DNA of 64,000 nt, from contig DAOORK010000001.1 in the NCBI GenBank assembly GCA_035389185.1, positions 65,006 through 129,005 on the forward strand, written 5' to 3'. The DNA is from Candidatus Woesebacteria bacterium (GTDB lineage Bacteria > Patescibacteriota > Microgenomatia > UBA1400 > MFAQ01). Numbering within the stretch: position 1 is the stretch's first letter; each line of letters begins with the position of its first letter. Below, in pieces: positions 15,139-64,000 of this stretch. The position numbers were made by a program, and so were the translations under genes. The notes under the pieces were generated by a model that saw nothing but the letters and a program-made list of their open reading frames with translations, was not told where the DNA came from and did not search any database.

Positions 15139-15221
15139 GTGCCGAGAGAGGGGATCGAACCCTCACGGCCTTGCGACCACAGGTTTTTGAGACCTGAGCG
15201 TATACCATTCCGCCATCTCGG
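15139..15221 (-). tRNA. tRNA-Leu (anticodon CAA), type II with long variable arm
   Basis: Reverse complement folds as acceptor GCCGAGA/TCTCGGC, anticodon stem CAGGT/ACCTG with loop CTCAAAA, variable arm TGGTCGCAAGGCCG, T-arm GAGGG-TTCGATC-CCCTC, discriminator A. CCA is not encoded. Confidence 0.8.
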
Positions 15222-15243
15222 CATTACTTATATTGTTACCCAA

Positions 15244-15302
15244 GCACGGCCTTGCGACCACAGGTTTTTTAAACCTCCGCGTTCACCATTCCGCCATCTC
15301 GG
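15244..15302 (-). pseudogene. Truncated duplicate of the 5' ~59 nt of tRNA-Leu(CAA) (no T-arm or 3' acceptor strand), with altered anticodon loop
   Basis: The sequence GCCGAGATGGCGGAATGGT..ACGC.GAGGTTTAAAAAACCTGTGGTCGCAAGGCCGTG is collinear with the full tRNA 22 nt away but ends before the T-arm. Confidence 0.5.
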
Positions 15303-15358
15303 CAACAAGCATATATTATACCTTAGTAAAGAAAATCCACCCTCGCGGGTGGATATTT

Positions 15359-26072: not shown

Positions 26073-27020
26073 GTGGCTAAGAAAAAACCAGAAGACCTGA
26101 CTCTAAGAAGATTGATTCGTAGGTATTTAAGTTTTATTGAGGTGGAAAAAAACTATAGTAAGTTCACTATTCGGAACTACTCCCACTATCTTAAGATGTT
26201 TAGTGATTGGTTTGAGAAACATTATGAGCAAGAATATATTGAGAAGCTGACTGATGACATGGTACGTAGATACAGATTATTTTTAACCCACTTTGAAGAT
26301 GTCCACGGCAAGCGACTCTCCCCTACTACACAAAGTTATTATGTGATTGCCTTGCGAGCATTTCTGAAGTATTGTGCTCGAAAAGGCATAAAAACACTTT
26401 CACCGGAAAAAGTGGATTTACCAAAAAGCGAAAACCACAATATAAAGTTTTTGGAAAGAGAACAGGTTGAGAGACTGCTGATGGCCCCAGATACATCGAC
26501 GATGTCTGGGTTACGAGATAGAACTATTTTGGAAGTGTTATTTTCTACAGGTCTTCGTGTTTCTGAGTTAGCGAAACTTGATATAGATAAAATTGATCTT
26601 AAAGCTCGTGAGTTTGGTATTATCGGAAAAGGTCGTCGGGCACGGGTTGTATTTCTTACTGATAGAGCTGCCGGCTGGTTGGATAAATGGCTTTCTACCA
26701 GATCGGATCCCTTTAGAGCTTTGTGGATTAGGATACCAAAAAACGGAGAGTGGGATCCGGCTATGGGAGGTGAAAAAGCTCGCTTGTCTATTCGTGGAGT
26801 TCAAAGAATTGTGGAGAGATACAGAAGAGCTGCTGGTATATCTATGAGTGTAAGCCCTCATACTCTTAGACACTCGTTTGCTACAACCTTACTTCAGCAA
26901 GGTGCGGACTTGAGAAGTGTTCAAGAAATGCTGGGACATAAGAATGTGGCGACAACCCAGATATATACTCATGTGACGAATCCTCAACTAAAACAGATTC
27001 ACGATAAATATCTGAAATAA
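26073..27020 (+). CDS. Tyrosine site-specific recombinase, XerC/XerD-like
   Basis: C-terminal catalytic box HTLRHSFATTLLQQGADLRSVQEMLGHKNVATTQIYTHV. Core-binding N-terminal domain. GTG start. Confidence 0.85.
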   Translation: MAKKKPEDLTLRRLIRRYLSFIEVEKNYSKFTIRNYSHYLKMFSDWFEKHYEQEYIEKLTDDMVRRYRLFLTHFEDVHGKRLSPTTQSYYVIALRAFLKYCARKGIKTLSPEKVDLPKSENHNIKFLEREQVERLLMAPDTSTMSGLRDRTILEVLFSTGLRVSELAKLDIDKIDLKAREFGIIGKGRRARVVFLTDRAAGWLDKWLSTRSDPFRALWIRIPKNGEWDPAMGGEKARLSIRGVQRIVERYRRAAGISMSVSPHTLRHSFATTLLQQGADLRSVQEMLGHKNVATTQIYTHVTNPQLKQIHDKYLK

Positions 27021-46462: not shown

Positions 46463-46870
46463 TTATTCTGCTTCCTCGTCTTTCTTTTCTTCAGCCAATT
46501 CTTCAGTTTCCTTTACTGGCTCTTCTTCTTTGGCTTCTTCGACGACTTCGGCAACTTCTTCCAAAGCCTCTTCTTTTTCTTCGACCAAATCTTCAGTTTC
46601 CTTTACTGGCTCTTCTTCTTTGGCTTCGATTCCATCTTCCAGAAGATCAACGATGGCTCGAGTGCCCTTTTGGATGGCGGCAATTCGAACTATTTGACGA
46701 ATAGATTTTATGACCTTGCCTTGTTTTCCAATGACACGTCCGACATCTTCAGGATCTACCTTAATAAGGTACTTGGTAGCTTCTTTGTCTTCGGTTTGCT
46801 CTTCTGAAATAACGACACTTTCAGGGTGGTTAACGATGTTGCTAACGATGTACTCGATTAGTTGTTTCAT
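46463..46870 (-). CDS. KH-domain RNA-binding protein (UPF0109/YlqC-like) with repetitive acidic C-terminal tail
   Basis: KH core VGRVIGKQGKVIKSIRQI. Located next to rpsP as in many bacteria. The tail (EEEPVKETEEL...) is encoded by a ~45-nt direct repeat. Confidence 0.65.
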   Translation of the reverse strand: MKQLIEYIVSNIVNHPESVVISEEQTEDKEATKYLIKVDPEDVGRVIGKQGKVIKSIRQIVRIAAIQKGTRAIVDLLEDGIEAKEEEPVKETEDLVEEKEEALEEVAEVVEEAKEEEPVKETEELAEEKKDEEAE

Positions 46871-55007: not shown

Positions 55008-56054
55008 TTAGAATTGTTTTAAAAAGCGTAAATCATCAGTGTAGAGCAAGCGTAAGTCCGGTAAGTTTAATCCTGATTTCATCATAAGGACTCTTTCTAC
55101 TCCCCAACCGAAGGCAAACCCGGAGTAGATCTTCGGATCTAAGCCACCATTTTTAAGAACAGTGGGGTGAACCATACCTGCTCCCCCGAGTTCCAACCAG
55201 CCAGATTTACAAACTTTACATGGTTTTTCGTTGAGAATGCCGGTTCCATGACAAAGTCCGCAACTAATGTCTATTTCAAAACTTGGTTCCGTAAACTGAA
55301 AGTGATGTGGTCTTAGGCGAATGGTACGGTCTTGACCAAAGTAGGCTTTTACAAAGTAGTCCATGACACCAATGAGATTAGTGATGTTGATGTTTTTATC
55401 TACGAGAAGGCCTTCGAACTGGTGAAAGACAGCGTTGTGTGAGGCGTCTGCTTGACGACGATAGGTTTTACCGATGTTGATCATCTTGATGGGAGGAGTC
55501 TTGACCCTCTCCATTTCCCGTAATTGACCATTACTGGTATGCGCCGTTAGAACAACATCGTCGGAAAGATAAAAGGTCTCTTGATCGTCTCTGGCGGGGT
55601 GATCTTTGGGGATGTTGAGTCCTTCGGCGTAGTACCAGTCACTTTCAACTTCGCGGTAGCGTCTTCTGGTAAAGCCTAGTTTGTCGAATATGGTTTCTAT
55701 GTCGCTAATTGCTTGAGAAATAAGGTGGAGACTACCGGCAGGTAAACGATTACCCGGAATGGTGACATCAAAAGAATCTTGAGATGGCTGATTCAATAAA
55801 TGGGTGATCATTTCCGAAATTAGTTTCGAACAGATATTTTTAAGTTCGTTAATTTCTTTACCGATGAGGGGGTTTTCTTTTATTGGGAGAGATTTAAATA
55901 ATTTATTTACCTCCCCTTGTCTTCCGAGATATTTGATATCTAAAAGCTCCAGTTCTTTGACCGTACTGCACTTTGAAATATCCTCTATAAGATTGGATTT
56001 TACTTTTTCAATAGTTTCTTTGTAATCGTTGGCCATCTTTGTTAATGATAACAA
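55008..56054 (-). CDS. pheS: Phenylalanyl-tRNA synthetase alpha subunit
   Basis: Class II aaRS motifs including HPARDDQETFY and FQFTEPSFEID. Confidence 0.9.
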   Translation of the reverse strand: MLSLTKMANDYKETIEKVKSNLIEDISKCSTVKELELLDIKYLGRQGEVNKLFKSLPIKENPLIGKEINELKNICSKLISEMITHLLNQPSQDSFDVTIPGNRLPAGSLHLISQAISDIETIFDKLGFTRRRYREVESDWYYAEGLNIPKDHPARDDQETFYLSDDVVLTAHTSNGQLREMERVKTPPIKMINIGKTYRRQADASHNAVFHQFEGLLVDKNINITNLIGVMDYFVKAYFGQDRTIRLRPHHFQFTEPSFEIDISCGLCHGTGILNEKPCKVCKSGWLELGGAGMVHPTVLKNGGLDPKIYSGFAFGWGVERVLMMKSGLNLPDLRLLYTDDLRFLKQF

Positions 56055-56057
56055 AAA

Positions 56058-56074
56058 CTCCCCTATTCGGGGAG
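56058..56074 (-). terminator. Terminator/attenuator-like hairpin between rplT and pheS
   Basis: Hairpin ctcccc-tatt-cggggag. On the minus strand it is followed by TTTTTGTT. Confidence 0.5.
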
Positions 56075-56102
56075 CTTTAATTCAATAATTAGTTCCCCGG
56101 AA

Positions 56103-56456
56103 TTATTTGGTGCTAAAGGAAACGAGATTTTTGAAGGCTTCGGGAAGATTAACTGCAAGTTGAGCCATGGATTTGCGGTTTAATTTGATTTTTTTATCAG
56201 AAAGCTTCTTGATAAAGACAGAGTACTTTGGAGCTCCGATTATTTCCGATAGAGCGGCATTAATACGAGAAATCCAGGTAATTCTCATTTGCTGTTTACG
56301 TTCCTTGCGGCCGTTGTAAGCATACTGTCCGGCGTGTAGTGAGGCTTCTGAGGCGACTTTGTACAGCCTATTTCTGGTCATCCGAAAACCCTTAACGAGT
56401 TTAAAGACTTTTTTGTGGCTCTTTCTACGGGCGATTCCTGTTTTAGTTCTTGGCAT
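56103..56456 (-). CDS. rplT: 50S ribosomal protein L20
   Basis: MPRTKTGIARRKSHKKVFKLVKGFR is the canonical L20 N-terminus. Confidence 0.9.
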   Translation of the reverse strand: MPRTKTGIARRKSHKKVFKLVKGFRMTRNRLYKVASEASLHAGQYAYNGRKERKQQMRITWISRINAALSEIIGAPKYSVFIKKLSDKKIKLNRKSMAQLAVNLPEAFKNLVSFSTK

Positions 56457-56471
56457 GTTAGTTAAATACGA

Positions 56472-56672
56472 TTAATTATGGAGCATTTGTTTAATTTTGG
56501 TGGCGATTCTACCAGTGACTTCTTGGTAGTGTCGATAGCGCCTGATGAGCTTTTTGCTTTTTTTGCGGCGAAGGTGGCGCATGTAAGGACTGCGACGTAA
56601 GACTTTACCTGTTCCGGTAATCTTAAATCGTTTCATGACAATTTTTCTGGTCTTTTGTTTAGTTTTAGTCAT
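56472..56672 (-). CDS. rpmI: 50S ribosomal protein L35
   Basis: MTKTKQKTRKIVMKRFKITGTGKV. Sits in the conserved infC-rpmI-rplT order. Confidence 0.85.
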   Translation of the reverse strand: MTKTKQKTRKIVMKRFKITGTGKVLRRSPYMRHLRRKKSKKLIRRYRHYQEVTGRIATKIKQMLHN

Positions 56673-56681
56673 AGACTTTGA

Positions 56682-57188
56682 TTATTTTTTGGGTTTCACT
56701 TGAGCGATGAGAAGTTTACCTAGATACTTTGGCTCTTCTACAACCGTGGAGACTTCGGTCAAACCGTTGAGGGCTTGGTTCATAACTTTTTCTCCGAATT
56801 CCTTCTTGGTGATTTCCCTGCCACGGAATTTTACCACTAACTTGACTCTATCGCCATCCTTTAAAAATTTTTCAGCCTGTCTTACCTTAACACCAAGATC
56901 ATTTTCGGCCATAAAGGGAGTTAGTCTAACCTCTTTTGTTTCTTGGCCACCTTTATTGGTACCGGCTTTTTCCTTTTTGTCCTCTTGATATTTGAATTTT
57001 TGAAAATCAATGATTTTAACAATTGGAGGTTTTGCTTTTTCGGTTATTTCGACCAAATCCAGTCCTAAATTAGCTGCCCTTGTAAGAGCTTCCTGTGTCG
57101 ACATGATACCAAGCTGTTTGTTTTCTTGGTCTATGACCCGAACTTCGGGATATCGAATGTTTTGATTGATACGATAGTATTTGTTCAC
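56682..57188 (-). CDS. infC: Translation initiation factor IF-3
   Basis: IRYPEVRVIDQENKQLGIMSTQEALTRAANLGLDLVEI matches the IF-3 N-domain. 168 aa. Confidence 0.85.
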   Translation of the reverse strand: MNKYYRINQNIRYPEVRVIDQENKQLGIMSTQEALTRAANLGLDLVEITEKAKPPIVKIIDFQKFKYQEDKKEKAGTNKGGQETKEVRLTPFMAENDLGVKVRQAEKFLKDGDRVKLVVKFRGREITKKEFGEKVMNQALNGLTEVSTVVEEPKYLGKLLIAQVKPKK

Positions 57189-57234
57189 TTGGTTGTATTT
57201 TACTATATTTTAGGTTTGATTTATGAAGTAAAAA

Positions 57235-57256
57235 AATCTCTCCCTTTGGGGAGAGA
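57235..57256. terminator. Bidirectional terminator hairpin (stem identical to the 15108 hairpin)
   Basis: Hairpin atctctcc-ctttgg-ggagagat with A-run and T-run flanks. Confidence 0.55.
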
Positions 57257-57265
57257 TTTTTGTAG

Positions 57266-57339
57266 TGGGCCCGACTGGACTCGAACCAGTGACCTCTGCA
57301 ATGTCAATGCAGCGCTCTAGCCAGCTGAGCTACGAGCCC
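57266..57339 (-). tRNA. tRNA-Val (anticodon GAC)
   Basis: Reverse complement is GGGCTCGTAGCTCAGCTGGCTAGAGCGCTGCATTGACATTGCAGAGGTCACTGGTTCGAGTCCAGTCGGGCCCA. Anticodon loop TTGACAT. CCA not encoded. Confidence 0.8.
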
Positions 57340-57360
57340 GACGAGTGATATTTTAGCATA

Positions 57361-57918
57361 TTAGCCTACAGAAGTGGCGATGCTACGCTCATTATTCTGG
57401 GTATACGATGACCCCTTTTTGTTGGCCATATTCCAGTAAGCACCCATTTTTTTGGAGCGGCTATTATAGATTTCCAGCCAACTATTAGCCTTTCTCATGT
57501 TTAATCCAAAATTGCGAATCATTTCTTTGATGTGTTCAAGAAAGTTTATTTGGTACTCACCATACTCGACAACCGGCACCTCGATGGCTTTTTTGAGATT
57601 GATATCTAGTCTTTTCACCTGTTTGCTCATCTCTTTGAGCTGGACTCTTATTTCTTCGATTCTTTTTTCTGTTTGAGTTTCTTTAAAAGAGAAAACCCTG
57701 TTCCATTCTTCGTTTCGATGTGAGTAAAATTGCTCGACGCGTTTTTTTTCGATCTCTTTTTTTGCTTGAATTTCGGCAAAGATATTTTTCCCTGGTAGTT
57801 TTTCTGGACCATCTGAATTACCGGAAGCTTTCGATTGTGAACTACGAAGAGCCTCCAAAAAGTTTTGGATTTTTATGTTACCTGAGTTTGATGGTTGCCC
57901 TGTCCAGTTATTACTCAT
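57361..57918 (-). CDS. Hypothetical coiled-coil protein
   Basis: 185 aa, Lys/Glu-rich central region. No motif. Confidence 0.45.
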   Translation of the reverse strand: MSNNWTGQPSNSGNIKIQNFLEALRSSQSKASGNSDGPEKLPGKNIFAEIQAKKEIEKKRVEQFYSHRNEEWNRVFSFKETQTEKRIEEIRVQLKEMSKQVKRLDINLKKAIEVPVVEYGEYQINFLEHIKEMIRNFGLNMRKANSWLEIYNSRSKKMGAYWNMANKKGSSYTQNNERSIATSVG

Positions 57919-57928
57919 TTATCTAAAC

Positions 57929-58723
57929 TTAACAAAGTTTTATAAGTAATTCAACAGTTTTGCGTCGGTCCATGATGGATTTTAGCTGACCAAGTTGTGT
58001 CTCAGGAACGCCGCCAACCTCAGCTAGCTTTTTGAGTTCTTTAATATCGGTGTCGATTTTTTCTATTTTGGCAATTTCGAGAAGAATTAGATCAAGTTTG
58101 ATTGATTCTTCGGCCTTTTTGGCATACTCGGTTTTTATCTCATCCAAGGTCTTGTTGACTGCTTTGAAGTAATTTTCCAAGGTAAGATTAAGACTTTTTG
58201 CTTGACTGGCGATTCTTTCCAAGCTGTAGTTAACTTCTTCATCAATTACCGGTTTGGGAACGTCTACTTGAATACTTTTTAACAGATTGTCGTAGATTTT
58301 TTCTATCTTTTTTTCCTCGGTATCTTTTTTATCTACCTTGGTGGCGGAAACAATTTTTGAATAGTCTTGAATTTTTATTTCAGGATATAAAGGGAGGGAG
58401 ATGGTAATTTTCCAACCAGTGGTTGATTTGGAGTCAATGTTTTCTAAAACTGGTCTACCTAGAAGCCTGTATTTATTCTCCTTGATAGAAATGTCGATGA
58501 TTTCATTGAGAATATGACCAAGGATATGATTGCTTAGCTTGTCTGGGTCGACATGTTCAGCGGCAATTGATCGAGGAGCTTTTCCTTGTCGGAAACCTTT
58601 GACGGTAACGTCTTTAATTAGTTCATCAATAGCATGTTCTTTTTGGGCGTCAACTTCTTTTGAGTTAAGGATTGCCTCAACTTGAGCGGTGTTGTTTTTG
58701 ATTTTTTTGACGGTTAGTTTCAT
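57929..58723 (-). CDS. Trigger factor-like chaperone (short form, N-terminal ribosome-binding domain, no PPIase domain evident)
   Basis: MKLTVKK...VEAIL...VKGFRQGKAPRSIAAEH contains the GFRxGxxP trigger-factor signature. Only 264 aa. Confidence 0.55.
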   Translation of the reverse strand: MKLTVKKIKNNTAQVEAILNSKEVDAQKEHAIDELIKDVTVKGFRQGKAPRSIAAEHVDPDKLSNHILGHILNEIIDISIKENKYRLLGRPVLENIDSKSTTGWKITISLPLYPEIKIQDYSKIVSATKVDKKDTEEKKIEKIYDNLLKSIQVDVPKPVIDEEVNYSLERIASQAKSLNLTLENYFKAVNKTLDEIKTEYAKKAEESIKLDLILLEIAKIEKIDTDIKELKKLAEVGGVPETQLGQLKSIMDRRKTVELLIKLC

Positions 58724-58893
58724 ATTTGATTGACATTTCTAGCTGCTAATTTTAGCATATCGTAGTTTATAAATCCTTTTTTTTTTGAACTAAATATTTT
58801 ATGATTGTTGCGATAATCTGAATTGTCAAAGGATCAATCGGATGGATACATTTAAGATTTGACATTAAAACTACCGAAGTTATAATTGCGAGA

Positions 58894-59361
58894 ATGAACG
58901 AATTTGAAAGAAATAACATTGAAAAAAGTGAGGAAGAGGCCTTAGTCTTAGAGAAGGCTGACATTTTTGTGTTGTGGCAATACGAGCTTGATAGAAAAAG
59001 TGAAAACTTTGACCCAGATGTAGCAATGGTGGGATTTGTGGCCACGGTCGAATCAAAAGATGTTACTGTTGAAGGTATTCTTTCGAGAAAAGACAATGTC
59101 TTGGTTGCTTACACTTCGTATTCTGAATTTCTCAATATTCTAAAAAATCCAAAAGTTTTAAGAATTGAGATGTGCTGGGATATAGAACTTCTTCTCTCAA
59201 ACACATCAGATGAAATAGTGATTACCGTTCCTAGTCCGGGGCCGGTAGACGATGAATGGGATAGTCCAAGTTATGATAGTTTTTGGAGTCCTGTTGAAAA
59301 CGAACTCCAAAGAAAGATTAAACGACTCGAAAGTGTCGGAAAGAAGGTAATAATTTTATAA
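58894..59361 (+). CDS. Hypothetical protein
   Basis: Balanced composition. TATAAT lies just upstream of the ATG. The overlapping minus-strand ORF is Ser-rich low complexity. Confidence 0.4.
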   Translation: MNEFERNNIEKSEEEALVLEKADIFVLWQYELDRKSENFDPDVAMVGFVATVESKDVTVEGILSRKDNVLVAYTSYSEFLNILKNPKVLRIEMCWDIELLLSNTSDEIVITVPSPGPVDDEWDSPSYDSFWSPVENELQRKIKRLESVGKKVIIL

Positions 59362-59369
59362 CGAATTTG

Positions 59370-59544
59370 TGCCGAGAAGAGGGGTTGGTCACTCTAGCTA
59401 ATTTCATTAGGACTTGCCTCTCGATAAATTTCTGCTGAAATTTCCTCAAGGCGGGCCTCAGCGCCAGTCGCGCTTCCGGCTCTTCAAGTCCTCTTTACAA
59501 AGTCAAAATAAATATCATGCCACAAGGGCATGATATTAATTTAG
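59370..59544 (-). repeat. tRNA-associated hairpin-rich element A. It lies downstream of tRNA-Leu(TAG) and is bounded by a 14-nt direct repeat of the tRNA 3' end.
   Basis: Direct repeat gtgccgagaagagg at 59370-59383 and 59544-59557. Outer stem aggacttg/caagtcct (59409-16 / 59485-92). Hairpins AAATTTC-TGCT-GAAATTT (59426-43) and GGCG-N8-CGCC (59450-65). Terminator-like hairpin with ACAAG loop at 59514-34. Confidence 0.5.
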
Positions 59545-59625
59545 TGCCGAGAAGAGGACTTGAACCTCCATGGGTTTCCCCGCTAGCTCCTAAAGCTAGT
59601 GCGTCTACCATTTCGCCATCTCGGC
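59545..59625 (-). tRNA. tRNA-Leu (anticodon TAG), type II
   Basis: Reverse complement is GCCGAGATGGCGAAATGGTAGACGCACTAGCTTTAGGAGCTAGCGGGGAAACCCATGGAGGTTCAAGTCCTCTTCTCGGCA. Anticodon loop TTTAGGA. Confidence 0.8.
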
Positions 59626-59658
59626 AGGCATTACGATCTGGGATATTTTACCATTAAG

Positions 59659-60273
59659 CTAGTCGAGCTGGTCGAAGAAAGTGGAAACACCGTTTGCCCA
59701 CGAGCCGTCGGAAGGAGGTGTGTAGGTTCTCATAACTTCCATGGGATTTTTGTAGTGTTTTCCATCTAAAAATATTTTGGTGAACTGAGGAGCAATTCTT
59801 CTTAAAGCGTCTTCATAACTACTGAATCGGGTTACCTTGTCGCCGTATATCCCCCACCCCCAACAATTAAAGGAGTTATCGGGAATATGTTTACAAAGAC
59901 TTGATTCTTGTTGGGCTATGGCTACTAACCAACGATAGTCAAAGTTGTATTGATCTGAGAGTTCCACAATTAGACCGGAGTATGGTTCTAGAGGTGATGT
60001 GTATTGATGAAGATATTGACGAATAATTTCCGGACGAGCGTCGGCTGTCTTGATAGAGGTTTTGATTTGCTGGTCAAAGGAAGGTAAGGCGGCAAAAACA
60101 ACAGGTTCTTCGGCGTTTGAGGCGAGATAGTTTTCTTGATTTGTGTGTACTCCAAGAATAAGCTCCTGTTTACCCTGGGAGATATCGAGTAAGTTGGTGC
60201 TTAAAGATAGGGTGACTTTGGAAAGTACCAAAAATAAAGGCAACAAAATCAGACATCTTTTTACTTTGGTCAC
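59659..60273 (-). CDS. Secreted protein with lysozyme-like/peptidoglycan hydrolase-like region (tentative)
   Basis: Signal peptide. LVAIAQQESSL...NCWGWG resembles glucosaminidase/lytic-transglycosylase catalytic motifs. Confidence 0.4.
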   Translation of the reverse strand: MTKVKRCLILLPLFLVLSKVTLSLSTNLLDISQGKQELILGVHTNQENYLASNAEEPVVFAALPSFDQQIKTSIKTADARPEIIRQYLHQYTSPLEPYSGLIVELSDQYNFDYRWLVAIAQQESSLCKHIPDNSFNCWGWGIYGDKVTRFSSYEDALRRIAPQFTKIFLDGKHYKNPMEVMRTYTPPSDGSWANGVSTFFDQLD

Positions 60274-60310
60274 AAAATAATCGTGTCAGAACTGGAGAGA
60301 GATGTCAAGT

Positions 60311-60460
60311 TTTGTGCTCCAAGAGGGATTTGCCTCTCGATAAAACTCTGCTGAGTTTTTCTCAAGGCGGGGCTCGACGCCAGTCGCGTCTGTGCCTTTC
60401 AAATCCCTCACAATAACAAATTTAGGATATTCAACCGCAAGGGTTGGAATATCCTATTTG
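60311..60460 (-). repeat. tRNA-associated hairpin-rich element B. It lies downstream of tRNA-Arg, is bounded by a 22-nt direct repeat of the tRNA 3' end, and is homologous to element A.
   Basis: Direct repeat tttgtgctccaagagggatttg at 60311-32 and 60457-78. Outer stem gagggattt/aaatccctc. Core shares CTCTCGATAAA..CTGCTGA..CTCAAGGCGGG..CGCCAGTCGCG with element A, with compensatory changes in the helices. Hairpin with GCAAG loop at 60424-55. Confidence 0.5.
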
Positions 60461-60534
60461 TGCTCCAAGAGGGATTTGAACCCCCAACCTGCGGCTTCGA
60501 AGGCCGACGCTCTATCCAGTTGAGCTATTGGAGC
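60461..60534 (-). tRNA. tRNA-Arg (anticodon TCG)
   Basis: Reverse complement is GCTCCAATAGCTCAACTGGATAGAGCGTCGGCCTTCGAAGCCGCAGGTTGGGGGTTCAAATCCCTCTTGGAGCA. Anticodon loop CTTCGAA. There is one U-C mismatch at the top of the anticodon stem. Confidence 0.75.
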
Positions 60535-60587
60535 AATGCCTATATTTTAGCTCATTTGTGCGTTTAAATGGTAAAATACTCATGTTC

Positions 60588-60661
60588 GGGTCAGTAGCTC
60601 AGTCGGTTAGAGCACCTGCCTCTTAAGCAGGGTGTCGCGGGTTCGAGTCCCGCCTGACCCA
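60588..60661 (+). tRNA. tRNA-Lys (anticodon CTT)
   Basis: GGGTCAGTAGCTCAGTCGGTTAGAGCACCTGCCTCTTAAGCAGGGTGTCGCGGGTTCGAGTCCCGCCTGACCCA. Anticodon loop CTCTTAA. Confidence 0.85.
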
Positions 60662-60691
60662 CAAATAGATATCGTATATATTAAAGATATA

Positions 60692-61921
60692 GTGAAAAGA
60701 CTGTTAGTTTTTACATATGCACCGGCCGGACTAGGTCACCTAAGAGTAACCGATGCTCTTGTGGATAGCAGACCTAAAGATCTTTCCTATTTGATGCTTG
60801 GTTCTTATGATCGATTCATTACCAGTTTTCATCGTTTTTTTAGTGTAAATCCGATTGGGAAGTTTATTTTTACATTGAATCAGTACGGTTTCCTTGAAGA
60901 TATTGTGACGGCAATTTATAGAAGGATTCTCATTATGACAAGTGGGCAAATGTATCGACAGATGAAAAGCATTGTTCAGTCAAAACAAGACATTGATGAA
61001 ATATGGGTAATTGCAACTCATTTTGGTATGGCCCATCAGCTTGGAGCGGTAAAAGATCGTTTGGCAAAAGATACAGGAAAGAAAATTAAACTTATTGTCC
61101 AGGTGACGGATGACACCACCCAGCACATTTGGTGTATTCGAGGGGCTGACCTGACGTTTGTCCCGAGCTTACTGACAAAAGAAAAATTGTTAAAGTACGC
61201 AAGTCGTCACAAAATTGATTCGAAATATGAGGTAATCCCCTATCCTCTATGCCCGATATTGACTGCAAAACTTGACGTGAGTAAAGGACGTGACCAGGCT
61301 TTAGGGAAAAGTAAACAAAAAATCAATGTGGCTGTACCGATTTCTGGGGCATCCGTAGGTTTGAATTACGCAACGAAATTAATAACTGAGCTTTGTAAAA
61401 AGAGTGACCGATTTAAGTTTTGGGTTTTGGTAAAAAAATCAGTGTATACGGATCACTTTATAAATGAACTATCTAAACTTACCGGAGTGAGTTTGATTAC
61501 CGGAAGAAATGATAATGAGATGATTAGTCTTTACGAGTTGTTGTATCAGGAAAACTTGATCCACTTGGAAATAACGAAACCGAGTGAACAGTCTTTTAAG
61601 GCAATTTTGCCTCCTGCCTGCGTGGGAGGATCTATTTTACTTTTTACTGCACCCGTAGGTCGTCAGGAATATGAGAACATGGAGTTTCTTAAAAGGCACG
61701 GGCTGATGCCTGGTTATCTGGACACAACTCCAAGAGCGATAAGCTTGCCGGAAAATCCTTTGAAAGCGGCCGATTTTGTGATTCAGAGTTTAGAGACAGG
61801 GTTATTTTTAAGAATGAGTTTACCTTCCTTCCAATTTTCTGAGGCTTCAATGAAGTCAGGTGAGGTTGGTTCTTCGGGGTCAGAAGATTTTTGGAAAAAG
61901 GTTGAGAGTCTTCTCGGTTGA
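60692..61921 (+). CDS. GT-B glycosyltransferase, MGDG-synthase/UgtP-like (GT28 family)
   Basis: N-terminal KRLLVFTYAPAGLGHLRVTDALVD resembles the MGDG_synth/MurG N-domain. C-terminal GGSILLFTAPVGRQEYENMEFL is a GT-B C-domain. GTG start at 60692 is chosen because the upstream part of the track ORF overlaps tRNA-Lys. Confidence 0.55.
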   Translation: MKRLLVFTYAPAGLGHLRVTDALVDSRPKDLSYLMLGSYDRFITSFHRFFSVNPIGKFIFTLNQYGFLEDIVTAIYRRILIMTSGQMYRQMKSIVQSKQDIDEIWVIATHFGMAHQLGAVKDRLAKDTGKKIKLIVQVTDDTTQHIWCIRGADLTFVPSLLTKEKLLKYASRHKIDSKYEVIPYPLCPILTAKLDVSKGRDQALGKSKQKINVAVPISGASVGLNYATKLITELCKKSDRFKFWVLVKKSVYTDHFINELSKLTGVSLITGRNDNEMISLYELLYQENLIHLEITKPSEQSFKAILPPACVGGSILLFTAPVGRQEYENMEFLKRHGLMPGYLDTTPRAISLPENPLKAADFVIQSLETGLFLRMSLPSFQFSEASMKSGEVGSSGSEDFWKKVESLLG

Positions 61922-61952
61922 AGTTTTTGATTATCGGTGTTAACGTTAGTGT

Positions 61953-62636
61953 GTGGCAGACACTAAAGAATCATATGATGTAAGTAAATTCGAACATCCT
62001 TCGGTAACGGTTGATGTTCTTTTTTTTACGATTAAAGACGATAAGCTTCAAGTTTTACTTATAAAAAGAGCTCAATGGCCTTATGAAGGTTCGTGGGCAA
62101 TACCGGGAGGTTTTGTAAAAATGGAAGAAGACCTGGATACTGCGGCCAGGAGAGAGATATCCGAGGAGTGCGGTGTAGATATCCCCTATTTGGAACAGCT
62201 GTACACTTTTGGTGACCCAAAGCGAGATCCTAGAACTCGCGTAATTACTGTTGCCTACTACGCACTGGCTCCTTATAAGGAAATAAAAAACATACAGTCT
62301 GATGAAGTTGTCGAGGCGAAGTTTTTTCCTGTTGAAAGCTTACCCAAAATGGCCTTTGATCATAAACACATTATTGAAGTCGGTTTTGGCAGATTACGGA
62401 AGAAAATTGGATATAGCAATATTGCTTTCGGATTACTGCCGGAGTATTTTTCTCTTTCCGATATTCAAAAAACTTATGAAGTTATTAATGGTCGATCTCT
62501 GGATAAACGTAACTTTAGGAAATGGATGCTGGGTTCTGGTTTGCTTGAATCTACCTCAAAAAAATCAGTTGGGGTGGCACACCGACCAGCGATGCTTTAT
62601 CGATTTGCAAAGAGAGACGTAGTATTTTTGAACTAA
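61953..62636 (+). CDS. NUDIX hydrolase with C-terminal winged-helix-like domain (NrtR-like)
   Basis: Nudix box GGFVKMEEDLDTAARREISEECGV. ~90-aa C-terminal extension. GTG start. Terminator at 62641-62656. Confidence 0.65.
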   Translation: MADTKESYDVSKFEHPSVTVDVLFFTIKDDKLQVLLIKRAQWPYEGSWAIPGGFVKMEEDLDTAARREISEECGVDIPYLEQLYTFGDPKRDPRTRVITVAYYALAPYKEIKNIQSDEVVEAKFFPVESLPKMAFDHKHIIEVGFGRLRKKIGYSNIAFGLLPEYFSLSDIQKTYEVINGRSLDKRNFRKWMLGSGLLESTSKKSVGVAHRPAMLYRFAKRDVVFLN

Positions 62637-62640
62637 AAAA

Positions 62641-62656
62641 GTTACCCGAAGGTAAC
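62641..62656. terminator. Bidirectional terminator hairpin
   Basis: Hairpin gttacc-cgaa-ggtaac flanked by an A-run and TTTTAAG. Confidence 0.55.
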
Positions 62657-62678
62657 TTTTAAGTTGTATGTTATCGAC

Positions 62679-63137
62679 TCAATTCAGCTGAGGCGACGAG
62701 GCGTAGGCTCGGGCTGCAAACTGAATTGTAAAGAAGAACTGACCGTCTTGTTCGACAATGAATTCATCGTTGAGCAAGTTATTAAACGGGAAGAAAGAGC
62801 GATTGCGGGCCTTCAGGTTAAAGACGTCAATTTCGTCTTTATTGAAGGGTAGCCAGCCCTTTCCTCGTTCTTGACAAAAACGTACAAGAACGTTTGCCGA
62901 TGCTTCAGTTTCAGAATTACCAAAAGCGTCAAAAAAGTGCATTGAGGTGTCGATATCTTCAGGTTTAATGGGACATCTGACTTGATCATTGATGATATCT
63001 GTCACAAGATCCTCCTTAGAAATATGTTGTAGCCGAATTGTAGCATTAAAAGACAGAAAAGTCAAGCTATAGGATAATATAGATGACGAAGTCCGCCTCT
63101 CGTATTTCGTTTTTTGTCTTAAATAAAAACTCTCCAT
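62679..63137 (-). CDS. Hypothetical protein (start uncertain; alternative Met at 62942)
   Basis: ORF without a convincing RBS at either candidate start. No motif. Confidence 0.3.
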   Translation of the reverse strand: MESFYLRQKTKYERRTSSSILSYSLTFLSFNATIRLQHISKEDLVTDIINDQVRCPIKPEDIDTSMHFFDAFGNSETEASANVLVRFCQERGKGWLPFNKDEIDVFNLKARNRSFFPFNNLLNDEFIVEQDGQFFFTIQFAARAYASSPQLN

Positions 63138-63159
63138 GAAGAAAAGATTTTTAGATTTA

Positions 63160-63313
63160 GGGTGGATGACGGGATTCGGTCACCGATATTTGCTTCGCAA
63201 ATTCGTCGACCCCGGCGTTTGCCGCACGTTACGTGCCGCAAGCCGCCATCCGAGTCCCATTTATTTGTCTCAATAAAACAAAACGCACCACAAGGGTGCA
63301 TTTTATTCTATTG
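63160..63313 (-). repeat. tRNA-associated hairpin-rich element C. It lies downstream of tRNA-His and is bounded by a 19-nt direct repeat of the tRNA 3' end.
   Basis: Direct repeat gggtggatgacgggattcg at 63160-78 and 63313-31. Outer stem gggattcgg/ccgagtccc (63171-79 / 63250-58). CGATA followed by hairpin ATTTGC-TTC-GCAAAT (63187-201). Further hairpins cggc-gttt-gccg and gcacg-tta-cgtgc. ACAAG-loop hairpin at 63285-99. Confidence 0.45.
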
Positions 63314-63388
63314 GGTGGATGACGGGATTCGAACCCGCGATCTCCTCCTCCACAGGGAGGCGCTTTAGCCAGCTAAGCTACATCCACC
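63314..63388 (-). tRNA. tRNA-His (anticodon GTG) with encoded G-1
   Basis: Reverse complement is G-GTGGATGTAGCTTAGCTGGCTAAAGCGCCTCCCTGTGGAGGAGGAGATCGCGGGTTCGAATCCCGTCATCCACC-C. Anticodon loop CTGTGGA. G-1 pairs with C73. Confidence 0.8.
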
Positions 63389-63438
63389 ATATAATTTCGA
63401 ACTTATATATTTTATCATTTGAGGTAAAATATAACCAT

Positions 63439-63512
63439 CGGGGTGTAGCTCAGATGGCTAGAGTACTGCGTTTGGGACGCAGGGGTCGTGAGTTCGAGTC
63501 TCACCACCCCGA
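63439..63512 (+). tRNA. tRNA-Pro (anticodon TGG)
   Basis: CGGGGTGTAGCTCAGATGGCTAGAGTACTGCGTTTGGGACGCAGGGGTCGTGAGTTCGAGTCTCACCACCCCGA. Anticodon loop TTTGGGA. Confidence 0.8.
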
Positions 63513-63519
63513 CAAAAAA

Positions 63520-64000
63520 ATGAAAGACGTTCGATTAATTTCATATCAAAAGAAGTTCAACTATTCGTATTCGTTGGGCGTCTTTCCGACGATTGAGTTG
63601 ATGGAAAATAGACCAGAGAAGGTTATCAAAATTATCTTTCATCCAAAAGGAAAAGAGAACAAGGGGGTCAAAAAACTAATTTCTTTTGCCACAAGTAAAG
63701 GTGTTCGTACAGAGTGGAGTGAGGGTTTGATCAAAAAAATAGGCGGAAATGACAATACCTATGCTGTTGGAGTGTTTAATAAGTATCAAGAAGAGGTTGA
63801 ACCGAGAGTGAATCACCTGGTGCTGGCAAATCCCGAAGATGGTGGCAATTTGGGCACGATGATAAGAACTGCCTTGGCATTTGGAATCAAGGATATTGCC
63901 GTGATTCGACCCGCAGTAGATATTTTTGATCCAAAGGTGGTCAGAGCCTCGATGGGATCGATTTTTAAGGTCAATATTGAGTATTTTGATGATTTTACGG
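63520..64000 (+). CDS. SpoU/TrmH-class RNA 2'-O-methyltransferase (3' end outside the window). Not in the supplied ORF track.
   Basis: ATG at 63520. Frame is open to the window end. HLVLANPEDGGNLGTMIRTALAFGIKDIAVI matches the SPOUT class IV methyltransferase motifs. Confidence 0.7.
   Translation, partial: MKDVRLISYQKKFNYSYSLGVFPTIELMENRPEKVIKIIFHPKGKENKGVKKLISFATSKGVRTEWSEGLIKKIGGNDNTYAVGVFNKYQEEVEPRVNHLVLANPEDGGNLGTMIRTALAFGIKDIAVIRPAVDIFDPKVVRASMGSIFKVNIEYFDDFT

Follow-up and report, generated by a model that had tools for sequence, protein, structure and literature searches.

The intact tRNA-His(GTG) gene of the 64-kb window (the whole stretch of DNA analysed here) is located at positions 63313-63387 on the minus strand, where it was recognized by ARAGORN and scored 69.5 bits with the Rfam tRNA model. 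As originally predicted, the 19-nt sequence GGGTGGATGACGGGATTCG is present at 63160-63178 and again at 63313-63331, the second copy being, in reverse complement, the 3' end of tRNA-His. On the tRNA strand, this 19-mer extends from C56 in the T-loop to C74, the base after the discriminator. Both copies, the tRNA-proximal one (63313-63331, the last 19 nt of the tRNA) and the distal one (63160-63178), were delimited on the minus strand by repeat comparison. The tRNA-proximal copy is followed by AATAGAATAAAATG.. and the distal copy by TAAATCTAAAAATC.., with the latter trailer running into the ATG of the ORF at 62679-63137.

When the window was shuffled 50 times with its dinucleotide content preserved, a 19-mer never recurred within 200 nt. 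The real window has such repeats at four loci only: in coding sequence at 46.5 kb, at a partial copy of a tRNA-Leu at 15.2 kb, and at two of the elements described below (B and C). A tandem duplication of the whole tRNA was not seen, since C56 to the 3' end alone is copied; a tandem tRNA gene duplication or pseudogene was likewise rejected, the copy being limited to nucleotides 56-74. The partial tRNA-Leu copy (15240-15305) covers approximately nucleotides 1-52, differs in its anticodon region and lies directly upstream of an intact tRNA-Leu(CAA) at 15139-15222 on the minus strand, and the coding repeat (46500-46609) is a direct repeat with a 90-nt period within a KH-domain (KhpA/B-like) ORF at 46463-46870, also on the minus strand. 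The window further carries, at 34.3-45 kb, a type IV pilus/competence-like cluster with two T2SSE ATPases, T2SSF, a prepilin peptidase, several N-methyl pilins and PilM.

The interval between the two copies at tRNA-His, hereafter element C, consists of 134 nt of hairpins without a credible ORF. Read on the tRNA strand, the order is tRNA, terminator hairpin, the stretch GGGACTCGG, hairpin P2, hairpin P3 and the 19-nt copy. Sequence and fold place the trailer and a long terminator-type hairpin at 63271-63313 (minus strand); its G+C core at 63285-63299 encloses the loop CTTGT (ACAAG on the plus strand), and a minus-strand T-run comes after it. Next comes the 5' strand of P1, or anti-seg (GGGACTCGG, 63250-63260, minus strand, from pairing and fold), which complements nucleotides 56-64 of tRNA-His, i.e., the T-loop and the 3' strand of the T-stem, with one C.A mismatch. 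P1 pairs at 8 of 10 positions with the distal copy, which is 19 nt long and begins at C56, and an alternative pairing that overlaps P1 joins GGATGGCGG (63242-63250) with CCGTCATCC. P2 (63214-63247, minus strand, from fold and family alignment) has a CGTAACG-type loop. P3 (63178-63211, minus strand, from fold and the covariance model R2 introduced below) contains a conserved UAUCG and a bulged A, and its closing pair takes C56 from the distal copy.

The structures first described on the plus strand were all recovered: the outer stem in which gggattcgg (63171-63179) pairs with ccgagtccc (63250-63258), CGATA at 63184-63188, the hairpin ATTTGC-TTC-GCAAAT (63188-63202) and the hairpin with the ACAAG loop (63285-63299). 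The two additional small perfect hairpins are present too, not as separate hairpins but as parts of the single hairpin P2. The description also needed to be moved from the plus to the minus strand, on which the tRNA lies and the family reads naturally.

The sequence of element C was identical in an independent assembly (Logan SRR4244858, L002), and it is therefore not an assembly artefact. Two mechanical ORFs (63119-63301 and 63162-63368) cross element C and tRNA-His, and the SpoU gene call begins inside tRNA-His; in a related locus (L021), the gene call at 1832-2854 likewise crosses an element. These ORFs and gene calls over elements and tRNAs probably reflect annotation errors to which the elements give rise; gene callers place false ORFs over them (for instance, L021 1832-2854 and window 63119-63301).

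A structured family downstream of tRNA genes in CPR genomes

Element A is found at tRNA-Leu(TAG) (59366-59562, core 59386-59495, minus strand) and element B at tRNA-Arg(TCG) (60311-60478, minus strand), the latter comprising a 146-nt inserted block (60333-60478) and a 22-nt distal copy (60311-60332). Both were delimited by their repeats and share the order of parts of element C, including equivalent terminator-type hairpins (59511-59537 in A, and also in B). They have a common 84-nt core with 77% identity and compensatory changes in the P3 stem. A fourth copy, element D, is located at tRNA-Gly(TCC), just past the window.

The family was first searched for with a 32-nt degenerate pattern derived from P3, and a metagenome scan added sites. 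In CPR genomes (Paceibacterota, Collierbacteria and mislabelled MAGs), this pattern retrieved 14 true sites, each of them downstream of a tRNA or tmRNA; four chance matches all fell in an AraC-like gene of Desulfobacula. The core pattern had no match in 2.9 million viral contigs. With a covariance model, the count came to at least 55 copies, spread over about 25 loci of Woesebacteria, Paceibacterota and Collierbacteria. Nearly all of them are situated shortly after a tRNA or tmRNA gene, and for 45 of the 55 a tRNA or tmRNA on the same strand lies no more than 350 nt upstream. The copies measure 110-175 nt, and a core of approximately 85 nt recurs at more than 40 sites and at more than 15 different tRNAs. 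Their layout is the tRNA, a terminator hairpin, a stretch complementary to the T-loop and T-stem, P2, P3 and a copy of C56 to the 3' end. The junction is fixed: the shared segment usually begins at C56, in some copies at nucleotide 57, and the preceding motif is mostly GTTC, with GTCC in tRNA-Gly and GCTC in one tmRNA. Elements of the family positioned at the 3' end of tmRNA (ssrA) genes were observed in L012 (4775-4882), L014 (214-323), L004 (4118-4227) and L046 (813-919).

Model R2, built exclusively from copies in other genomes and excluding window and C-type sequences, scored element B with 96 bits, element A with 92 bits and element C with 21.7 bits (E 4e-5), and nothing further in the 64-kb window. 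This agrees with the proposal that element C has the architecture of A and B with a diverged sequence, and supports the classification of element C as a real, statistically supported and divergent member of the family holding A and B. The same layout was seen at tRNA loci of relatives and, within the window, at no tRNA beyond those of A, B and C. The CGTAACG-type P2 loop defines a C subtype common to elements C and D and to copies in L018, L021, L036 and L043; in the last of these, a related genome, the copy at tRNA-Lys(CTT) (52-165) has a P3 identical to that of element C.

In P2 and P3, compensatory double changes were present at 15 of 18 pairs, and on the tRNA strand 29 G.T cells were counted versus 13 A.C cells. 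The unpaired nucleotides conserved in the core are a GA/GA internal loop, UAUCGA and an AGCA loop. Terminator and spacer sequences vary among copies with nearly identical cores. A terminator precedes most copies, and the spacer showed no promoter-like site; the copies in L010 and L003 lie between tRNAs, inside operons without a terminator, and must therefore be co-transcribed. A search of positions 56000-64000 against Rfam 15 with E values up to 10 matched tRNAs alone and left the elements unmatched. Readings as a hammerhead, a K-turn/box C/D or a group I intron, judged by eye, were rejected because core motifs were misplaced, the element was too short or it lay outside the tRNA.

A second, unrelated family of mini-elements was observed around tRNA-Arg(TCT), both in the same genome (L001 16125-16770, about 4-5 kb beyond the window end) and in L026 (6845-7030). 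It has the motif ACAGCTTGCTCC...CCGCTTCCTGTTAT and a junction in the D-loop, and is flanked either by copies of the tRNA 5' part upstream or by copies of the D-loop-to-3' part downstream. In the relative L024 it is missing, and just 4 nt separate tRNA-Leu(TAA) from tRNA-Arg(TCT). The main family has apparently not been described before, and such mini-inserts are common at CPR tRNA genes.

Empty sites, filled sites and arrays

Presence of the elements is polymorphic at orthologous tRNA genes. At tRNA-Gly(TCC), the site is empty in L023, reading ..CACCCGCTCAC ATATGCATTATTG, and filled in L021, L043 and the window genome. In the filled sites of L021 and L043, the far copy goes on with CAC ATATGCGTTACT, and the copy in the live tRNA goes on with CCA and then the terminator; the far-copy trailer (ACATATGC..) agrees with the empty site. 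Similarly, at tRNA-Arg(TCG) the empty site of L024 reads ..TTGGAGCAC AAAACTTGACAG, and in the window, filled by element B, that trailer stands after the far copy (distal trailer AAAACTTGACA). The window has no element at tRNA-Lys(CTT), a site that holds C-subtype copies in L043. Since the empty sites of relatives carry the far-copy trailer, the far copy and its trailer are ancestral, and these comparisons set the limits of the inserted block: it begins at C56 of the live tRNA, continues with the terminator and the complementary stretch, and ends with P2 and P3. As the empty sites for siblings B and D show, the inserted block thus supplies a matching tRNA 3' end and displaces the ancestral one. 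The original prediction that each element picks up or duplicates the 3' end of its own target tRNA is borne out insofar as that end is carried, in about 45 copies at more than 15 tRNAs and tmRNA, but acquisition after arrival is contradicted by the empty sites.

By analogy with the empty and filled sites of its siblings, the inserted block of element C would be 153 nt long (63179-63331, minus strand), with edges that may slide anywhere inside the 19-nt repeat. It holds the replacement tRNA 3' end, the terminator hairpin, the anti-tRNA stretch, P2 and P3. No empty tRNA-His site was found among the homologues of the neighbouring 152-aa ORF, which came only from the same genome and from an unrelated small-gene cluster, and the history of element C therefore rests on its sibling loci; by these, its distal copy is presumably the displaced ancestral 3' end of tRNA-His. 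A primer-binding site was rejected as an explanation of the copies, since they continue into genomic trailers (GCACAAA in B, CCACCCT in C) and not into CCA.

Several copies are arranged in arrays. In L020 (2561-2861), a perfect tandem array with a 112-nt unit, 2.7 copies and 100% identity begins at C56 of tRNA-Ser(CGA), with its last unit broken off after P2; further arrays are present in L032, L043, L044, L017 and L006. Truncated units were also found in L043, L006 and L018, one truncation being at a 5-nt microhomology. At its far end (59366-59404), element A retains what erosion has left of an earlier C-subtype element (..GAGTGAC immediately followed by CAACCCCTCTTCTCGGCAC), which argues for repeated integrations at tRNA-Leu(TAG). 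A relative (L030) has three nested eroded remnants, pushed outward as at element A. In two loci, a gene stands between two element copies, or between a partial and a full copy, at one tRNA: a DUF1749 gene in L021 (1813-3101) and an unannotated 214-aa membrane-like ORF in L018 (6764-7650). These genes may represent cargo capture.

The stretch complementary to the tRNA varies along with it. The best helix formed by the 5' strand of the outer stem had a mean length of 9.2 nt with the cognate tRNA versus 6.1 nt with non-cognate ones, and in the well-preserved copies of L006, L019 and L036 the complement reaches 17-20 nt, from the T-loop to the discriminator. It fits the proximal copy better than the distal copy, as neutral decay of the distal copy would likewise predict, with the perhaps exceptional case of L036, in which the match is perfect to the live tRNA but not to the far copy. 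In older copies, the complement has decayed without strand bias (18 G.T versus 33 A.C cells), so that its pairing is not maintained after insertion. Furthermore, it is short where no terminator stands between it and the tRNA (L010, L020), and a long complement would be harmful to the tRNA if co-transcribed. We therefore take the complementary stretch to be a DNA-level feature, probably of importance when the element moves.

Candidate modes of movement

The elements are non-autonomous. No ORF was found inside them and no recurrent protein beside them, where housekeeping genes alone recur. In 345 kb of element-bearing loci, no tyrosine-recombinase homologue was detected except a Xer-type gene of the window (26073-27020, plus strand). 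This is the sole recombinase found in the window plus 10 kb; its best matches are XerC and XerD, with scores under the equivalog cutoffs and also under the integron-integrase cutoff. An IS200-like or other HUH gene was found neither in the window nor in L001 (74 kb of this genome) nor in the 345 kb of loci, a weak negative for IS200-like genes. A TnpB/IscB guide RNA was also considered, given an omega-RNA-like layout of a scaffold and a flank-derived 3' tail; it was rejected, as the live tRNA would be self-targeted and no tnpB lies nearby.

When folded as single-stranded DNA, the block of element C is predicted to form three consecutive hairpins (-36.9 kcal/mol, z -5.8), as is that of element B (z -7.4), and in the predicted folds both ends of the two inserted blocks fall at hairpin feet. 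Our preferred reading of element C, which we hold to be probable rather than assured, is a miniature integrative element, gene-less and non-autonomous, that inserted site-specifically in the T-loop of tRNA-His. Insertion would have occurred between T55 and C56 of the gene, plus or minus one nucleotide. The 153-nt block would have brought its own version of the tRNA segment between C56 and the 3' end, leaving the gene intact, together with the terminator hairpin, a stretch complementary to the same tRNA segment, P2 and P3. The original 3' end would have been moved 153 nt downstream, where it would pair with the complementary stretch and close a three-way junction.

We infer that the block moves as a unit bounded by hairpin feet, and that the moving form is probably a folded single strand or a small circle in which P3 is joined to the element's own tRNA-like segment. 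In this folded form, the tRNA-like end would pair with the complement and mimic the double-stranded target, and exchange of the block with the tRNA gene, at the T-loop, would be carried out by a recombinase provided in trans. The enzyme class that we prefer for this role is a tyrosine recombinase acting on a folded site, like the attC integrases or XerCD on the CTX-phi hairpin; the window does encode an Xer-type enzyme. For tRNA-His, the model predicts an empty site reading ..CATCCACCC and then TAAATCTAAAAATC. Arrays that end in a truncated unit (L020, L043, L006), and not in P3 and the host copy, run counter to simple repeated integration, and the model gives no account of how a single family comes by segments, both replacement and complementary, that fit more than 15 tRNAs. 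The bias-free decay of the complement in old copies and the differing terminators and spacers of copies with nearly identical cores likewise count against it, and copies inside tRNA operons may have an RNA role.

The conserved fold and the matched complement of the target point to recombination of a folded single strand that might be retargetable; in phage Ms6, an attP core matched to another T-loop can retarget the integrase (PMC1762012). More speculatively, and with a rather low probability in our judgement, the family may constitute a new class of structured integrative elements without genes in which base-pairing chooses the target. The replacement tRNA end and its inverted complement would form a duplex mimic in a folded single-stranded circle of about 110-170 nt, and a host recombinase would exchange this mimic with the T-loop of any tRNA that it matches. 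If this were true, the elements would be a naturally reprogrammable insertion module that could flank, and perhaps capture, genes, as considered for L018 and L021.

The same object could instead be moved by an HUH enzyme (IS200/IS605 TnpA-like or IS91-like), through peel-and-paste or rolling-circle transposition, which we regard as rather unlikely, though a serious rival. The target would then be the GTTC of the T-loop, the enzyme would cut where the left and right hairpins have their feet, and the tRNA 3' copy would serve only to keep the gene alive. IS91 inserts at GTTC or CTTG, and IS200/IS605 elements insert 3' of a 4-5-nt motif. In favour of this are a block made up nearly entirely of hairpins and ending exactly at their feet, and the strand-specific folding of P2 and P3. 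The junction fixed beside GTTC in most tRNAs and the identity from nucleotide 57 in several copies fit cleavage after GTTC, and the 3'-truncated arrays look like one-ended products of rolling-circle transposition. However, the gene search described above, weak for IS200-like genes, returned no such enzyme, the motif before the junction departs to GTCC in tRNA-Gly and GCTC in one tmRNA, and a long identity block together with tandem arrays is the classical signature of a tyrosine integrase (PMC4383910).

It is more doubtful still that the elements are structured non-coding RNA genes or cis-elements of tRNA transcription units, acting for example in tRNA 3'-end metabolism or as protein-binding RNA, with a functional tail and mobility as a side effect of duplication. 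The strong covariation of P2 and P3, the conserved unpaired nucleotides and the excess of G.U over A.C on the tRNA-sense strand would suit an RNA, as would the necessary co-transcription of the copies in L010 and L003. Nevertheless, most copies lie behind a terminator with no promoter-like site in the spacer, and Rfam offered no match. Presence differs among close relatives at the same tRNA, and copies decay, truncate and pile up in tandem. A perfect tRNA complement of 17-20 nt would be harmful in a transcript and, in agreement with this, the complement is short where the terminator is missing.

We consider it very improbable that the two repeats are the att sites of a larger prophage or genomic island left as a scar after deletion of its cargo. 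A direct repeat of a tRNA 3' end is indeed the expected residue of island excision or decay (PMC4383910), and a gene is located between two element copies at L018 and L021. Against this, independent deletions would not converge on one structure, that is, on the core of about 85 nt at more than 40 sites and more than 15 tRNAs, always within elements of 110-175 nt; arrays of identical units were found, and the 2.9 million viral contigs gave no match. Finally, the readings as a repeat due to chance or as a tRNA gene duplicated partially in tandem can be dismissed as already refuted by the shuffles, by the restriction of the copy to nucleotides 56-74 and by the R2-detected family member between the copies.

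Should the preferred reading of a miniature integrative element be true, these would be the smallest known elements to integrate into a tRNA and rebuild the gene, at many CPR tRNA genes. They would rewrite tRNA 3' ends, some with an encoded CCA, and the terminators that they add would alter what lies downstream of tRNA genes.

Comparison with known systems

MITEs, REP/BIME, Correia and RPE repeats are comparable with the present elements in size, copy number, hairpin potential and lack of autonomy. Unlike them, the elements are strictly specific for the T-loop of tRNA or tmRNA, restore the target gene and generate no short target-site duplication. The flanking repeat is direct, 19-22 nt long and part of the tRNA, and no parent IS was found.

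PATEs (derived from IS200/IS605) and IS91-type elements are small and non-coding, with subterminal hairpins and a fixed short motif (GTTC for IS91). The elements resemble them in having subterminal hairpins at both ends, and no usual terminal inverted repeats; the short motif next to the insertion is GTTC in most cases but GTCC or GCTC in some. However, PATEs and IS91 neither duplicate nor replace 19-22 nt of the target, and no HUH transposase was found near the elements.

Our literature search returned no description of such elements. The nearest are the tRNA introns of Patescibacteria, which are group I introns of the anticodon loop and whose survey contains nothing like these elements (PMC13011429), whereas element C lies outside the tRNA and is too short to be one.

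CIMEs, known from the literature on Streptococcus ICESt, are decayed ICEs of kilobase size without a conserved fold. They share with the elements the att bounds, the lack of their own recombination genes, a presumed mobilisation in trans and tandem accretion; in the elements, by contrast, the non-coding structure is the conserved part.

Integron attC sites and the attP(+) of CTX-phi, used by XerCD, are folded single-strand recombination sites. The likeness extends to an imperfect hairpin that is strand-specific, measures about 60-150 nt and contains bulged bases, to structure conserved over sequence, to a stem that reproduces a double-stranded target and to a crossover fixed at the stem edge. 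Nevertheless, the elements are without RYYYAAC/GTTRRRY boxes, intI and attI, and their target is the tRNA T-loop and not dif or attI. Their outer stem changes with each tRNA, and no R''/R' boxes were present in the sequences read.

In islands at tRNA genes (tDNA islands), the insert regenerates the tDNA and a displaced fragment marks the far end, and the Islander definition requires an integrase inside the interval (PMC4383910). An intact tRNA with a displaced cognate 3' fragment in direct orientation is found at element C and in approximately 45 family copies, and the comparison with empty sites identifies the far fragment as ancestral at siblings B and D, but the interval of element C contains no integrase gene. 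Island-finding software would therefore miss the elements (PMC4383910). They are like the tDNA islands and prophages that tyrosine integrases insert, in their site, the 3' part of a tRNA or tmRNA, in gene restoration, in the displaced 3' fragment as a direct repeat, in the start of the identity block at the T-loop and in tandem arrays at one tRNA. In contrast, tDNA islands measure kilobases, whereas the elements comprise 110-175 nt with no integrase and no gene; one conserved core serves more than 15 tRNAs, and the elements have a conserved fold of three hairpins and bear the target segment a further time in inverted orientation. They follow the principle of tDNA islands, and it is the miniature, structured and gene-less form that differs.
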